DNA of 64,000 nucleotides from Candidatus Krumholzibacteriia bacterium (GTDB lineage: Bacteria > Krumholzibacteriota > Krumholzibacteriia > JAJRXK01), in contig JBGPIA010000001.1 of NCBI GenBank assembly GCA_041484665.1, positions 608,001 through 672,000 of the forward strand, given 5' to 3'. Made by a program: the position numbers. Positions 42,501 through 48,500 of this stretch are shown here, one piece after another. Each line of letters opens with the position of its first letter. The first letter of the stretch is position 1.

Positions 42501-45500
42501 GAAACGGTGCGGCGACGTGGCAATCCCCGCGGCCTGCAGCACTGCGTAGGCCTCGTGCTCCAGCAGGATCGTGCGCCCCTCTTGGATCGCGGGGCGCAGC
42601 AGCCTGCGGATCGTGTCGACGGAAGGGGTGGGCATCGGGGTGGCTCCTGAGGACTTCTGGTTGGGCTGGGGCTGGGGTGCGCGGGTGGACTGGCGGGTAC
42701 GTTTGTGCTTGGACTGGTGGTTGGAGCGGCGGGTGGAGTCCGTCACGCCCGCCGAACTCCTGGCACTCACGCCGCTTCTGCCGATCACGGACGCAAACAT
42801 GGCAGTTGAGCCACACCGATACAAGGGGTCTCGGGCCGTATCCCCGGGGCGCCCGCGCGCAGGACGGGCTAGCTGCAACCGCATGTGATAGAGTCGATTG
42901 CATGGCACAGCGCTCTGCGGCCTGCCTGGTCGCCCTCTCCTCCCTGCTGAGGGCAGCCGCCGCACCCCATGACACGCGCACTCGCTTCGAGGCCGCAATC
43001 TCCGCGGCCGACCAGACCTATGCCACCACCACCGGAGACACGAAGCGCTCGATCACCCTGCTGGACTCGCTGGTCGCCGACGCGCGCAGCGGGGGCGACT
43101 CCGCCCTCGTACTGCTGGCCGTCTCGGCACGCGGCCGGCAACTGGCCGGCGTCGGCGAGGCGGCGCGCGCCGAAACCGACCTGCGCGCCGCGCTGCGATT
43201 GTCCAGCGCGGCGCGCGATACCCTGCTGCAGTGCAAGGCGCTGCGCTGGCTGGGGTTGGCCATCGCCACGCAGTCGCGCATCGCCGAGTCCGCCTCCTAT
43301 TACACCGAGCTGTTGCGCCTGTCGCTCGCGCGCAAGGACCGACTCTACGAAGGCTACGGCTATTTCGGCCTCGCATACGTCGATCTGTGCGGCGGCAACA
43401 CCGAGGCGGCGCGCCGCGGCTACGAGCGTGCGATCGCCATTTTCCGCGAGCTGGGCCGCACCCGCGACGAGCTCTACGTGCTGGTGGGGATGGGCAGGCT
43501 GCTCGGGGAGGTCGGAGACCTGGAGGCCGCCCGGCGGTGTTTTCTCACCATCGTCGAGCGTGGCCGGCAGGTGGGGGCGCTCCAACCGCAGGTCGAGGCC
43601 CTGAACAATCTGGCCCTGCTCGAGCAGACCATCGGCGACCCCGGCCTCGCCCTGCAGCATTTTCGCGAAGCCTACGGGCTGTCCCGCGCGACGTCGAACA
43701 CCGATGACATGATCATGGCCCGGATCAATATCACAAGTGCCCTGACCCAGCTCGGCCACTTCGACGCCGCCGTTGCGGTGCTGGACTCCGCACTGCAGGT
43801 CTGCCGCGACCAGCACTACGTGGAGAAGGAGGCGTGGGTCCTCGACTACTTTGCAGACTTGAGGCGGCAACAAGGCCGGCCGAGGGAAGCGGAAGGGCTC
43901 TACCGCGCCGCGCTGGCGCTGGGCGGCGCGGTCCCGCCGCCTGTACAAGAGACAACTGTGCTGGGACTGGTGGAGAGCATGGGCGACTCCGTGGCTGCGC
44001 TGGCGACGCTGCGGCAGCACGCGGCCCGGCTGCGCCCGTTTCTCGCTTCGGGCAGAGCCGACCTCTTCGAATGCGAAGAGGGCATCCTGCTCCAGCGTCT
44101 GCGGCGGCACGCGCAAGCCCTGCGTCTGCTGCTGGCGGCGGATCGCGTGGCGCGGCGCACTGGCGCCATCACTGACCGTCTGCGGCCGCTCGTGCACGCG
44201 GCAGAGTGCTGGCGCGCTCTGGGACGACCCGACAGCGCGCTGATCGCGCTGCGGGGCGCCGAGCAGGTGTGGGAGACGCAGCGCGGGCTGCCCCGCGATC
44301 CACAATGGCGCGAGCTGCGCGGAACGCTGGCGCGGCAGTTCTACGGAAGCATGGCCGAGCTGCTGCTGGCCTACCCCCCTGAGCTGCCGCCCCAGGCGCG
44401 CACGCGGCGGGCGTTCGACGCGCTGCAGAAGTTCAAGGCACGCTCCCTGCTCGAGCGCATGACCGGCCCTGGCCTGGCCGCGGGCCACGTTCCGTTACCC
44501 GAGCAGCTGTCGATCCGCACCCTGGCACAAGTCCAGGACGCGGTGCTCGGCGACGGCGAGCTTCTCCTCGATTTCTTCGTCTCCACGGACGCCTCGTTCC
44601 TGTTTGCCGTGACGCGCAGCGAGTGCCGCGCGATCCGGCTGGTCGATGGGCCCGCGCTGGAGACCGCCGTCGCGCTCGCGCGCGACCTGTGGGCGACCGC
44701 GCCGCCGGAGCGCGCGCCCGCCGAGCAGGAGCCGCTCCGGCAAGCCGGGGTCGCGCTCGCGCGCATGCTGCTGGGCGAGGTGAGCGATCTCGTGCGCGCC
44801 AGCCGGCGCGTGATCGTCGCGCCCGATGGTCCGCTCAACCTCGTCGCCTTCGGCGCGCTGCCGGCGCCACGGATGGGGTCCAGCGGATCCGCGTCCGCCA
44901 CCAGATCCGCGGCCCTGGAGGTGGCCAGCCCGGTTTCCCTGCTGCGTGACCGCGAGCTCTGGAGCGTTCCCTCGGCGACCGTGCTCGCGCAGCTGCGGGC
45001 CCGACCAATGGGCGCGGCCGGTGACGTGCACGGACACAACGCGCCCGCCGTGCCGCCGGCGCCGGATCGCATCTTTGCCTGCGCACTCGGCGCGACCGCC
45101 GCCGGCCGCGCGCTACCCGGCGCGGTCGGAGAGGTCCGCTGGCTCGCGCGCCGCTATCGCGGAGTGGATCTCGCCCTGGACGATTTTAGCCGAGGCGGGC
45201 AGGCGCTCGTCGAGGCGCTGCCGGGGCACCGGGTCGTGCATCTGGCGACGCACACCGTGGTCGATGATCAGCGCCCCTGGAACTCCGGGCTGTTCCTCGG
45301 TTCGACCCGTGGCGGCGCCGTGGACGCCTACCTGCGCGCCAGCGAGATCGCCGAGCTGAGGCTTTCGGCCGATCTCTGCGTGCTGTCCGGCTGCGAGTCG
45401 GCGGGCGGCCGCGTACTGTCGGGCGAGGGTGTGCAGGGGCTCTGCGGCGCCTTCCTCAGCGCTGGGGTCCCGGCCGTGCTCGCGACGCTGTGGCCGGTCG

Positions 45501-48500
45501 ATGACCGCTCGACGGCGCGCATCGTGCGCGAGTTCTATTGCGCACTTGGCCGCGGCGGCAGCGCCGCCGAGGCGCTGCGCCGCGCGCAGCTCACCGTGGC
45601 CACGGACCCGCGCACGAGCCATCCGTTCTTCTGGGCGGGGTTCGTCCTGACCGGCGACGGCATGGCGCACGTGCGGCTGGCGCGCCGAGTCCCGCCCGCG
45701 GCCCCGGCTTGCGTGGCCGGCGCAGCCCTGGTGGCGATCGTGGCGCTGGCCCGTGCCCGACGTCGACGTCGTGCCCGGCGCAACGCGCGCGACCGGGTGT
45801 TGGCGTCCGCGCCGCTTCGTCGCGCCACCCTGTCCGACGCCGGCGCCACCGAGATCCGTCCGTGACGAATCCGGCGATGAGGTCTCTCTGACCATGGACG
45901 CGGACGACCGTGCCGGGGCCGTGTCGGGGCTGACCGACGACGAGCTGGTCCAGCTCGCCGTACGCGAGACCCAAGCCGGTGGTGGCGGACCGGCCGCCGG
46001 CGAGCTCTTGAGCCGCTACCAGCTGCGAGTCTATCGGTGGTGCCGCCGCTATGCGCGCGACCACGAGCGGGCGCTCGACCTCAGCCAGGACGTCCTGCTG
46101 CTCGCGTACCGCGCGCTGGGCTCCTTCGAAGGGAGGGCGCCGTTTTCGGCCTGGCTGTTCACCATTACGCGACGTCGCTGCATCCGGGCCATGCGGCCCG
46201 TGAGCATGCTGCGTTACGACGACGCCGAGCTGGAGCTGATCCCCGACGACCGCCCTGGAGCCGACCGTGCCCTGGAGGACGAGGATGAGCTGCAGCGCAT
46301 GATGGAGCTCGTGCGCAGTTGCCTCGACCCGGTAGAGCAGAAGGCGCTGATGATGCGCTGCATGGAGCGCATCCCGGTGGATGAGATCACGCAGCTTCTG
46401 GGAATCGCAGCGGCATCGGGCGCGCGCGGCGTCCTGCAGCAGGCACGTCGCAAGCTGCGCGCGGCATCGCACGAGGATGACGCTGGAGACGGGAGAACCC
46501 CATGAGCGAACGATGCCTGACCGTCGAGGAATTGGCGGTGGCCCTGCAGCAGTCGGAGACGAGCCCAGGGCGCCGCCATCTCGCCGGGTGTCCGCGCTGC
46601 CAATCGGTCCTGATGTCCTACCGGGAGTTCCTCGAGCCCACCGCGACGCTCCCCGAGGGGGAGCTGCGGGAGGCCAACGCCAGGTTGCAGGAGCAGCTGG
46701 AGAAGCAGCTCGCTCTGGCCGGGCAGCCGGCGGGGCCGGCGGGGCGCTCGACAGCGGCACGACGCCCGCGTACGCACCGCGCGTGGCGCGACCGCCTCCC
46801 TGGCTGGCGCACGCTGCGCCCCGCGTGGACCGTGGCGCTCGGTGCGCTGGCCGTCGTGGCCGTGATCGCTGCGATCGAGCTCGCGCCCGACCGTTCGCGC
46901 CCGATCGTGTTGCGCGAGCAGGGAGAGCAGCGCGGAGTTCCCACGGGACTTCCGGCGCTGCTCCCAGTCGAGCCCGCGCCGGACGGAGGCTTGACGATTC
47001 GCTGGCAGCCGGTGTCCGGGGCAGATTCCTACGAGGTGCGGGTCTACTCCACGCAGCTGCAGGAGGTCGCACGCCTGGGCCCCGTGAGCGGGACCTCGTT
47101 CCTCTTGCGCCGCGCCGCGCTTCCCGCCGCGGCGGCGCCGGCCGGCGCGCCCGCGGGCACGTCGGCGGGCACGTCCGCCGCGGCGGCGCAGGACACCTTC
47201 CTGGTGCGCGTGGCCGCGCAGCGCGGCGGGGCGCAAATCGGCCTCTCCCACGTGACGAGTGTTCGACTGACGCGCTGAGCGGAACCCACCGTACGCTTCC
47301 CTCCACGCGCGGTCGCCTGTACGTGAGCCGCGATCGACGTGAACTCCCGTGCGCGTCGGCGTGCGCCGGGGTGCGCCCCATCGGCATGGTGTGATCCAGC
47401 GCCGACCGCTGTCTCTCTTCGAGCAGAGCCGCCGATCCGCATGCTCCTCATCCCCACGCACGGTCCAGGAACGGCGTCACTCCCGGGCCTGCGACCGACC
47501 CCACAGGAGGGTCAATCATGACTTGGCATTTCTCATCGTCTCCGGCCGCGCTGCGAGCTGTGCTCTCGGCGGTGGCCAGCTTGCTCCTCGCGCTCGATCC
47601 CGCCGGCATCGTTGCGGCCGGATCGCCGCCCAGCGCGGGGCCCGGCGCGCCGGCCCCCGGCAGTGCACGCATTGCCAGCAGCCCGCTCCCCAGGCTCGGG
47701 GTCGCGCCCAAGTCGGCCCCGCCCTCCGGCTTCACCTACCAGGGCCAGCTGCGCAACGGGCTCGGCGTGGTCAGTGGGCCGTGCGATCTCCAATTCTCGC
47801 TGTTCGATGCGCCGGCTGCGGGCGCTCAAGTTGGCACCACCCAGACCAGGCTCGGCGTCACCGTGGACAACGGGGTCTTGACCGTCCAGCTCGACTTCGG
47901 GGCCGGCGCGTTCCAAGGCGACGCGCGGTGGCTGGAAATCGCGGTGCGGTCTCCGTCGGGAGGCGGAAGCTACACCACGCTCACGCCGCGGCAGGCGGTG
48001 ACGGCTGCTCCACAGGCCCTGACGCTGCGCCCCGGCGCGCAGATTCGCACCGCCAGCGAGCCAATCGGGCTCACGGTGAGCGCGTCGGACGTCGCGTGGG
48101 TCGCCCCGGTCGGCGTGATGGCGACCGGCGGCACCAGCACGAATACGTTCCCGGGACAGCCTACCGGTGTGTTCGGTGAATCCGCCAACGGCACCGGGCT
48201 CCTGGGGTACAGCCAGAACGGGATCGCCATCGTGGGTCAATCCGATCTGAACGACGGCGTGCAGGGCATCAGCCAGGGCTCCAACGGGGTGTCCGGCTTC
48301 TCGGCAAAGGTCGGGGCGAGCGGCGTGTACGGCGAGAACAGCGCCGGTGGATACGGAGTCGCTGGACGCGCGTCCGGGAGCGGCATCGGCGTGTTCGGCG
48401 AAAACTTCGACTCCAACGGCTGGGCAGGGCGTTTCAACGGCAGGACGCTGATGAGTGGCGACCAGACTGTGCTCGGAAACCAGATCATCACATTCGACCA

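Follow-up and report, generated by a model that had tools for sequence, protein, structure and literature searches.

A TPR-CHAT protein as candidate site-1 protease of a zinc anti-sigma factor in a three-gene ECF sigma module of Krumholzibacteriia

Gene organization of the locus

The window analysed here is a 64,000-nt stretch of a Candidatus Krumholzibacteriia genome, and all coordinates given below are positions within it. Three genes on the forward strand encode a TPR-CHAT protein (42902–45865, 987 aa), an ECF sigma factor (45894–46505, 203 aa) and a zinc anti-sigma factor (46502–47278, 258 aa). This triad, which had been proposed in the initial annotation, was confirmed by Pfam, the zinc motif and hydropathy.

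The TPR-CHAT protein comprises a probable signal peptide (residues ~1–21), a TPR solenoid, a CHAT domain (Pfam CHAT at 615–919, E 7e-53), a C-terminal transmembrane (TM) helix (~932–950; 45695–45751), behind which lies a run of arginines, and a basic tail. The AF2 model of residues 22–925 has a pLDDT of 87.7, and separase, DdvA and Csx29 were its best Foldseek matches. Both presumed catalytic residues, His784 (45251–45253) and Cys831 (45392–45394), are conserved in 35/35 sequences of the CHAT alignment; the former aligns with the histidine of DdvA and Csx29, and the latter with the catalytic motif of separase, DdvA and Csx29. Given a CHAT domain with a His-Cys dyad behind a TPR solenoid, as indicated by Pfam, residue invariance and fold, the protein is presumed to be a clan CD separase-like protease.

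The sigma factor matches Pfam Sigma70_r2 (E 1e-16) and, weakly, r4_2, and its clade is present in 52 of 121 genomes of the phylum. The start of the anti-sigma gene, directly behind it, overlaps the sigma stop codon (ATGA). The anti-sigma factor consists of an N-terminal helical ZAS domain (1–74) with C5 and H26-x3-C30-x2-C33, a single hydrophobic TM helix (103–127), a disordered linker (128–152) and an FN3-like outer domain (153–256), an anatomy typical of transmembrane ZAS proteins. Its profile matches FN3 and, weakly, RslA-type 3hug_B and ChrR (E 0.001–0.006); the FN3 fold was also assigned by Foldseek from the AF2 model. Pfam zf-HC2 matches several paralogues but not the window protein.

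Occurrence in the genome and in relatives

In total, 24 CHAT matches were found in the genome, yielding 18 frames of >900 aa. An ECF sigma gene lies within two genes of 11 of these, and one more (on C7) is at a distance of three genes, so that the reported linkage was upheld with a count of 11 plus one rather than ten. Likewise, the large CHAT genes with no nearby sigma gene number five of 18 and not eight, and one further copy lies near a pair made up of an ECF gene and a Ser/Thr kinase gene. The chance of at least 10 of 18 being linked is ~3e-10 if genes are treated as independent, which paralogues are not. Among class relatives, a sigma gene is present at 75 of 100 CHAT loci; conversely, in 63 loci chosen by the sigma factor alone, CHAT was found within 5.5 kb in 53 (37/41 where the flanks are complete). 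All 12 examined records labelled Bacteroidota have no sigma gene near CHAT.

A ZAS-like partner is encoded at all 12 sigma-linked loci, with H-x3-C-x2-C in 10; the partners described earlier thus largely hold, except that one of the ten original modules appears to be wholly cytoplasmic. Partners of CHAT-linked sigma factors end in FN3, TPR or DUF4384 domains, and some are soluble. One module of the genome is a sigma-ZAS-TM-TPR fusion.

Signal peptides and TM helices were assigned by hydropathy alone. An N-terminal 12-residue hydrophobic stretch (KD ≥2.0) is found in 17 of the 18 large CHAT proteins, in agreement with the earlier view that they begin with signal peptides; the exception is C6:185547, whose partner is the only one with no TM helix. 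Four of the 18, the window copy among them, also carry a C-terminal TM helix and a basic tail, and 48 of 52 held-out members of the window's clade have such a helix, which contradicts the description of a free periplasmic protease. The hydropathy profiles suggest that the CHAT protease is usually exported and that the window copy is membrane-anchored at its C-terminus.

Candidate promoters and neighbouring genes

A candidate promoter, TGTGAY-N15-17-GTCY, precedes the sigma gene and adjacent genes for exported proteins. The copy proposed for the sigma/anti-sigma pair (45861–45885, a loose form) has a −35 element overlapping the CHAT stop codon and a −10 element ending 8 nt before the ATG. The motif was found upstream of the sigma gene in 23 of 60 held-out loci, versus 0.07 for shuffled sequences, a statistical enrichment that points to promoter function.

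Two further copies on the same strand (47390–47414 and 49492–49516) precede candidate target genes at 47518–49434 and 49644–51596, respectively. The first encodes an exported beta-rich protein with a hydrophobic N-terminus, and the second its paralogue, whose look-alikes in the Atlas are unnamed beta-repeat proteins; neither has a Pfam match. A small exported protein with an FlgD Ig-like tail (51607–52218, +; Pfam FlgD_ig, E 3e-11) is encoded 10 nt behind the stop codon of the second target gene and is probably co-transcribed with that gene. Genes flanking the modules often encode large exported proteins, and a Pfam scan of 78 ORFs flanking 45 loci (nearest ORFs, first 600 aa) detected no CRISPR/Cas or CBASS family.

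A conserved arginine in the anti-sigma linker

The linker, which lies outside the membrane and is modelled with low confidence, contains two competing candidate P1 residues. Arg138 (VLR↓E; 46913–46915), within a segment of pLDDT <50 (134–146), occupies the sole invariant column of the partner alignment (36/36), unlike the zinc ligands, whereas in a second alignment the family arginine column (34/36) falls on Arg144 (QR↓G; 46931–46933). The sequence around Arg138 is atypical of the family motif, [LIVMFY]R[GS], which was sought 4–40 residues behind the TM helix and compared with shuffled sequences. It occurs in 29/54, 27/29, 11/36 and 36/55 partners of four sets (shuffled means of 6.1, 4.2, 3.5 and 7.4, respectively), which are phylogenetically related, so that the shuffle P-values overstate significance. 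The set from other phyla is the one with 11/36; a wider window gives 16/36, and the relaxed motif count in that window is not significant. Control anti-sigma factors with no CHAT gene show no enrichment (1/13 and 1/6; shuffled 0.9 and 0.5), and ordinary FN3 repeats carry the motif in 51 of 1012 cases. The motif is retained across FN3, TPR and DUF4384 partners and in 6/6 soluble partners; it tracks CHAT linkage rather than the fold or compartment of the partner.

This arginine resembles the site at which HetF cuts PatU3 (Y116-R117↓S118), where R117A blocks and S118A reduces cutting (PMC9457339). The arginine-binding aspartate of separase (D2151; PMC10317155) aligns with the variable A872 (A 15, R 7 and S 4 of 35), leaving the S1 pocket for a P1 arginine unexplained; D868, four residues earlier, is invariant; separase and DdvA likewise have Asp at this position, and two Csx29 proteins have Ser. 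From sequence conservation and the HetF analogy, the CHAT protein probably cuts the anti-sigma factor at the conserved arginine and would thereby activate adjacent genes that encode large exported proteins.

Predicted complex of CHAT and the anti-sigma factor

In the predicted complex, the FN3 domain docks on CHAT helices 585–622 of the pseudo-protease half (44654–44767), with a score of 0.72 versus 0.35 for the best control; 116 of 157 solved complexes reach the mark set for this score, as against 2 of 215 mismatched pairs. The runs share at least 54% of contacts, and the partner pLDDT is at least 68. The lowest-error contacts centre on Leu186 of the FN3 hairpin (47057–47059), a column with Leu in 20 and Gly in 8 of 36 sequences. 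The confident contacts include neither R138, R144 nor the His-Cys dyad. In Csx30, the C-terminal domain docks on the CHAT2 domain of Csx29, and the cut falls in a flexible loop (PMC10028731).

Comparison with known systems

Among known systems, the DdvA-DdvS pair of Myxococcus xanthus (PMC11506125; PDB 8rot, 8rw5) comes close to the module; of the PDB sequences, DdvA matches the CHAT profile best (E 2e-14). The pair likewise combines an ECF sigma factor, a CHCC-type zinc domain, one TM helix and a periplasmic TPR-CHAT with a His-Cys dyad, and a cut in the juxtamembrane linker followed by RseP has been proposed. DdvA, however, is one polypeptide, whereas the protease and anti-sigma factor are separate ORFs in the window and all clade loci examined, the protease having its own signal peptide and C-terminal anchor and the partner ending in FN3, TPR or DUF4384. 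DdvA is reported to lack a three-helix motif, to which the long helices modelled in the pseudo-protease half of the window protein may be equivalent (not superposed). Nor, among the flanking ORFs scanned, are the neighbours those of the DdvA-type control of CBASS/CRISPR defence islands; here they encode exported proteins. The partner profiles gave no DdvA match in PDB at E 10, although ZAS domains are short and easily missed, and a search for a fused form found none, which is weak evidence; the homologue search of the DdvA study covered fused proteins only (PMC11506125). The initial reading of the triad as a split DdvA is therefore better taken as analogy than as descent.

A three-component CHAT/anti-sigma/ECF pathway, considered new in the initial annotation, is already known in the cytoplasm from type III-E Csx29/Csx30/CASP-sigma (PMC10028731), in which a separate TPR-CHAT cuts an anti-sigma factor and relieves an ECF-like sigma factor; docking on the pseudo-protease half, a flexible-loop cut and autoregulatory promoters are further similarities. 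The Craspase arm differs in that it is cytoplasmic, is triggered by target RNA of Cas7-11, cuts after Met or Leu and has in Csx30 a substrate that is not of the ZAS-TM type; the event proposed here would be extracytoplasmic and Arg-directed. The probable signal peptide and TM anchor, the ZAS-TM-FN3 partner and the lack of a Cas family among the flanking ORFs scanned set the locus apart from that arm.

In Anabaena, the CHAT protease HetF cuts PatU3, an inhibitor sequestering the regulator HetZ, after Arg; the context is developmental and divisome-related, and in the available text HetZ is not called a sigma factor nor PatU3 described as a ZAS-TM anti-sigma factor (PMC9457339). As the initial annotation had suspected, the association also appears in the ECF classification literature: according to PMC8999054, CHAT genes are conserved beside actinobacterial ECF54, for which proteolytic control is proposed and which is described as lacking an anti-sigma factor, whereas the window sigma gene is followed by a ZAS-type partner.

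In canonical regulated intramembrane proteolysis (RIP), exemplified by DegS and RseP acting on RseA, site-1 and site-2 cuts in a single-pass anti-sigma factor release an autoregulated ECF sigma factor. Here, each sigma factor would instead have its own site-1 enzyme, a cysteine protease from the separase branch of clan CD, in place of a shared serine protease or metalloprotease.

Proposed mechanism and alternatives

In our view, the TPR-CHAT protein likely serves as a dedicated site-1 protease in a RIP cascade acting on the anti-sigma factor, and we infer the cleavage, order of events and signal as follows. The protein would be exported, the C-terminal helix in the window's clade holding CHAT just outside the inner membrane, where helices of the pseudo-protease half may hold the outer FN3 domain. 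By analogy with separase and Csx29, a signal sensed by the TPR solenoid would align the dyad, and a cut after R138 or R144, as conservation and HetF suggest, would remove the FN3 shield. As in DdvA and RseA, an RseP-type protease and cytoplasmic degradation would then free the sigma factor, which may transcribe the operon that encodes it, together with the adjacent genes for exported proteins, from the candidate TGTGAY-N15-17-GTCY promoters. The genome contains a Peptidase_M50 gene of the RseP family (E 4e-65), as do all 14 control genomes, so that its presence is not discriminating. The invariant linker arginine, the predicted CHAT-FN3 complex and the matching topologies of protease and partner support CHAT as first cutter, whereas the silent dyad mutants of DdvA, with no autoproteolysis seen, count against cutting (PMC11506125).

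Those mutants, silent under the tested conditions, would suit a protein that binds but does not cut, either an RseB-like co-sensor or shield or one for which the linker is a securin-like pseudosubstrate with its arginine in the S1 pocket, another protease making the site-1 cut and the dyad having a different substrate. The model, which supports FN3 docking and not active-site engagement, and the steric block of RseP by the TPR-CHAT of DdvA (PMC11506125) fit such a role. We regard it as unlikely, since the dyad is invariant, HetF cuts at the equivalent arginine, and securin inhibits through a hydrophobic residue in place of the P1 arginine (PMC10317155), which these partners retain. Less probable still is that CHAT is a regulon output maturing or degrading the exported proteins that often flank the modules, the anti-sigma arginine serving an unrelated protease or the structure. 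The order sigma, anti-sigma, CHAT in 15 of 52 held-out loci, in which CHAT would be sigma-induced, and the existence of orphan CHAT genes and of orphan sigma/anti-sigma pairs agree with this, but CHAT lies upstream of the sigma gene and its promoter in 34 of the 52 (16 of these 34 with the motif in between), the arginine motif follows CHAT linkage with controls not enriched, the sole CHAT with no signal peptide pairs with the sole soluble partner, and the predicted complex passes its controls. It seems very improbable that the protease is constitutive or activated by products of the sigma factor itself, setting a basal level or positive feedback with no outside signal: the isolated HetF CHAT domain does need no added signal to cut PatU3 in vitro and keeps its level low in vivo, but separase, Csx29 and DdvA have an inactive resting state, and long divergent TPR solenoids in a dozen paralogous modules per genome fit separate inputs.

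Implications

To our knowledge, no substrate is known for the majority of bacterial TPR-CHAT proteins. The DdvA study left open whether CHAT can serve as a site-1 protease in the periplasm, since enzyme and substrate form one chain for which no trigger is known (PMC11506125). In the present module the two are separate proteins, and the predicted scissile arginine, the docking residue and the candidate reporter promoter make the question testable. If site-1 cleavage by CHAT is true, a separase-like cysteine protease would become one of the few known site-1 enzymes, and the dozen paralogous protease/substrate/sigma/promoter sets would constitute orthogonal protease-gated switches. To a broader reading we give somewhat less than even credence: stand-alone bacterial TPR-CHATs may largely be receptor-proteases, each TPR sensing its own input and each CHAT cutting a cognate anti-sigma factor (perhaps also kinase ectodomains) at a portable hydrophobic-Arg↓small motif, in periplasm or cytoplasm. 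On this view, a single general class of CHAT-to-sigma signalling would include DdvA, Csx29-Csx30 and HetF-PatU3 as special cases, and a dozen insulated channels per genome would drive the secretion of large surface and hydrolytic proteins.

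The triad and its counterparts in the genome

The window carries, on the forward strand, genes for a TPR-CHAT protease of 987 aa (42902-45865), an ECF sigma factor (45894-46505) and a zinc anti-sigma (ZAS) partner of 258 aa that overlaps the sigma stop codon (46502-47278); a check of ORFs and Pfam matches recovered all three where the initial annotation had placed them. In the source genome, for which we used our own gene caller and frame scans, 24 CHAT matches yielded 18 frames of >900 aa. Ten CHAT-ECF modules had been proposed, and our recount found an ECF gene at most two genes away in 11 of the 18 and at three genes in one more. 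A ZAS-like partner is present at all 12 of these loci, with the expected H-x3-C-x2-C motif in 10, and the chance of such clustering is ∼3e-10 if genes are independent. One further CHAT gene lies near an ECF-kinase pair, and five of the 18 are without ECF. An N-terminal hydrophobic stretch, in line with the signal peptide previously ascribed to the TPR-CHAT proteins, was found, by hydropathy only, in 17 of 18, and by the same measure the only CHAT protein without it pairs with the genome's only soluble partner.

Two TPR-CHAT genes are in pieces owing to stops or frame breaks (C17:39766-42764 and C17:7560-10386, one of them divergent from an intact module), and further remnants lie at C1:158724 and C13:66895. 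An orphan sigma/anti-sigma pair of the window's clade (L012, C1:83347-85219) retains only a CHAT remnant, and L013 (C16:89037-92183) is likewise an orphan, a TM-anchored CHAT of comparable type; the two might act together in trans.

Linkage in relatives

Of the 31 genomes of the class, 29 have CHAT matches. Among the first 100 distinct places of the CHAT list outside the source genome, a sample that leaves aside weaker and unlisted matches, 75 have an ECF gene in a stretch of ∼12.5 kb, a count that includes some ECF-kinase pairs or unrelated sigmas. The window's sigma clade is present in 52 of 121 genomes of the phylum. At 53 of 63 previously unexamined (held-out) places, a few of which resemble metagenome loci used earlier, a complete or partial CHAT gene lies ≤5.5 kb from the sigma gene; among those with complete flanks this is so at 37 of 41. 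The gene order in these 63 loci is CHAT>sigma>anti-sigma in 34, sigma>anti-sigma>CHAT in 15, divergent in 2 and convergent in 1, with none in 11. In other lineages, a sigma gene accompanies 46 of 78 CHAT loci, mostly with a ZAS-TM partner, in records titled Aminicenantes, Acidobacteria, Calditrichaceae and others, and none of the 12 Bacteroidota-titled records has a sigma gene near CHAT. Not all TPR-CHAT proteins belong to a three-gene module.

Mirror-tree correlations were 0.37 for CHAT-sigma and 0.42 for CHAT-partner, for which shared ancestry alone may be the cause, and rho was 0.25 (p 0.09) among the genome's own 10 paralogues; the tree is a quick version, and no claims of origin are built on it. 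In a third class of loci, a protein with a Ser/Thr kinase motif replaces the anti-sigma factor beside TPR-CHAT and ECF sigma (L075, L084, L088, L090, L099, L115, L117, L120, L121, L127, L133, L135 and C6:166556-174208 of the source genome).

Protease, partner and predicted docking

The AF2 model of protease residues 22-925 has a pLDDT of 87.7, and its fold is matched best by separase, DdvA and Csx29. The dyad H784/C831 is invariant among 35 clade members. A C-terminal TM helix followed by an arginine run is found in 4 of the 18 proteins of the genome, the window protease among them, and in 48 of 52 held-out clade members. The proteases had been described as free in the periplasm; from its C-terminal helix the window copy is predicted to be a membrane-anchored periplasmic enzyme with the CHAT domain adjoining the membrane. 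According to profiles, AF2 and fold searches, the partner comprises ZAS helices (8-74), a TM helix (103-127), a linker, of which 134-146 fall under pLDDT 50, and an outer FN3-like domain.

A predicted complex of protease 81-925 with partner ectodomain 128-258 scored 0.72, compared with 0.35 for the best control. Of solved complexes, 116 of 157 attained the score mark, and of mismatched pairs 2 of 215 did; this calibration is roughly valid for our own alignments. At least 54% of contacts recur between runs, and the partner's pLDDT is 68 or higher. In the model, an FN3 hairpin around L186 would rest on protease helices 585-622, with extra contacts at 324-329. This predicted layout resembles that of Csx29-Csx30, in which, according to the excerpted text of PMC10028731, the C-terminal domain of Csx30 constitutively binds the CHAT2 domain of Csx29 and is cut in a loop; the likeness could itself raise the docking score.

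A conserved linker arginine

Across 36 aligned FN3-type partners, selected by fold and not by arginine, a single position never varies: an Arg that follows the TM helix, usually in the context L-R-G. For counts of [LIVMFY]R[GS] 4-40 residues behind the TM helix we kept partners of 140-460 aa that have a TM helix, and excluded kinases, near-duplicate sequences and five rows that were soluble or wrongly picked (L104, L105, L114, L123, L185). The motif occurs in 29/54 partners of the source genome and its relatives (shuffled mean 6.1), 27/29 of the sigma-picked metagenome set (4.2), 11/36 of other lineages (3.5) and 36/55 of the held-out set (7.4), where a looser R-small pattern was uninformative (51/55 vs 45.8). 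It stands at chance level in ZAS-TM partners of unrelated ECFs (1/13) and in CHAT-free pairs of the source genome (1/6). Arg-small stands a constant number of residues ahead of the FN3 tryptophan in 34/34, 32/32 and 28/30 partners; in ordinary FN3 repeats the same position has it in 241/1012 and the strict form in 51/1012. A representative search with the ectodomain profile, used as control, gave only multi-FN3 proteins in its top 150, and a homologue search with the alignment gave six proteins, none informatively named.

The motif also occurs in TPR-type and DUF4384-type partners. In a soluble class, in which an ECF and a TM-free ZAS partner ending in a beta domain accompany a CHAT without obvious signal peptide, as judged by eye (L008, L105, L114, L134, L138, L144), it is kept in the linker as [VM]R[GS] in 6/6. 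An invariant arginine in a disordered linker, regardless of neighbouring fold and compartment, looks like a protease site; PatU3 is cut by HetF, the founding CHAT, at Y116-R117|S118 (PMC9457339, in excerpt). In the window copy the candidate residue is either R138 (VLR|E) or R144 (QR|G), depending on the alignment. The invariant D868 was initially assumed to be the separase-type Arg-binding aspartate; counting from the catalytic Cys, with human C2029 and D2070 as reference (excerpts of PMC10317155 and PMC9729208), puts the true equivalent four residues later in a variable column, and it was therefore dropped as support for Arg specificity. Both this lack of conservation in the CHAT clade and the rivalry of two candidates in the window copy count against cleavage at arginine.

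Proposed mechanism and comparison with known systems

We consider it probable that TPR-CHAT is the site-1 protease of the anti-sigma factor, cleavage being predicted. The partner would dock on TPR-CHAT and, upon a signal, be cut after Arg; an RseP-type cut would follow (an M50 gene is present in the genome) and release sigma, which would then drive autoinduction and target expression. Binding without cutting would agree with the predicted complex, whose confident contacts include neither R138, R144 nor the dyad, so that the model supports docking and not catalysis; set beside the invariant arginine, this reading seems unlikely to us. At L007:469-2229 (C6:111965-113728), one ORF combining sigma, ZAS, TM and TPR is divergent from a TPR-CHAT gene, and L140 has a similar-looking fusion; since the L007 sigma is fused to its own anti-sigma, a cut would be needed for release. 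That the protease is an output of the regulon would accord with the sigma>anti-sigma>CHAT order of some loci and is improbable beside the predicted docking, and constitutive cutting, in which docked partner would be cut irrespective of signal, is highly improbable.

In its proposed working the triad resembles DdvA-DdvS and Csx29-Csx30-CASP-sigma, but it belongs to neither system; its earlier designation as a split DdvA is an analogy. In the excerpted text of PMC11506125, DdvA is the only characterised anti-sigma factor with TPR-CHAT, its CHAT activity could not be demonstrated, and the homologue search was aimed at fused forms. Among 8000 scored candidates we found two hits to fused anti-sigma/CHAT forms, neither with a CHAT Pfam match, which is weak evidence. 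CHAT genes adjoin ECF54, without anti-sigma (PMC8999054, in excerpt), and the main-text excerpts of PMC7826278 and its preprint leave CHAT unmentioned, and the supplementary ECF group descriptions of PMC7826278 may name CHAT neighbours. With PMC10317155, PMC9729208 and 10.1101/2023.06.23.546230 (in part) also consulted, a literature search outside which most subscription journals fall gave no report of an exported TPR-CHAT that is encoded apart from a ZAS-TM anti-sigma and paired with it.

Candidate promoter motif and likely regulon

A motif, TGTGAY-N15-17-GTCY, was first noticed by eye behind anti-sigma genes. Because it was spotted in the same regions, its count there (9/41) is circular, and the tests are the held-out loci and, in part, the comparison of clade with other loci. 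It lies upstream of sigma in 23 of 60 held-out loci (shuffled 0.07, reverse strand 0), and 231 kb of clade loci contain 25 copies against 8 in 1062 kb of CHAT loci outside the clade, a comparison that is partly circular. The CHAT stop codon is used by only 5 of 27 loose held-out hits; among 11 further strict hits that have an ORF behind them, 8 precede proteins of 317-1371 aa with hydrophobic N-termini. An unbiased gapped-word promoter search gave nothing above shuffles, and counts of the motif within the window by itself do not exceed chance (strict 3 vs 1.1, loose 9 vs 6.0). The genome has 28 strict sites, of which 4 are upstream of called first genes, 3 of these beside clade triads.

Candidate promoters in the window lie before the first (47390) and second (49492) exported-protein genes and, in loose form, before sigma (45861). 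At 45861-45896 only 8 nt separate the end of the predicted -10 from the sigma ATG, and the sigma mRNA may therefore have little or no leader. The region 47518-51596 encodes paralogous exported beta-rich proteins without Pfam match, and a related-looking gene stands beside another TPR-CHAT gene and a remnant in L014 (C13:67572-70839).

Flanking ORFs include LVIVD, FG-GAP, beta-helix, CARDB, S8 and M43 peptidase, Kelch and FlgD-tail proteins, as well as housekeeping genes and many without match; no CRISPR or CBASS families are among 78 flanking ORFs. Strict sites are weakly enriched genome-wide before FlgD-tailed genes (2/185 vs 2/2353; loose form not significant). The genome has at least 150 FlgD Ig-like matches and, by our own profile, ∼205 genes with such a tail, an abundance that suggests a large secretome with a common C-terminal sorting domain. 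The regulon likely consists of the sigma operon and one or a few large exported proteins.
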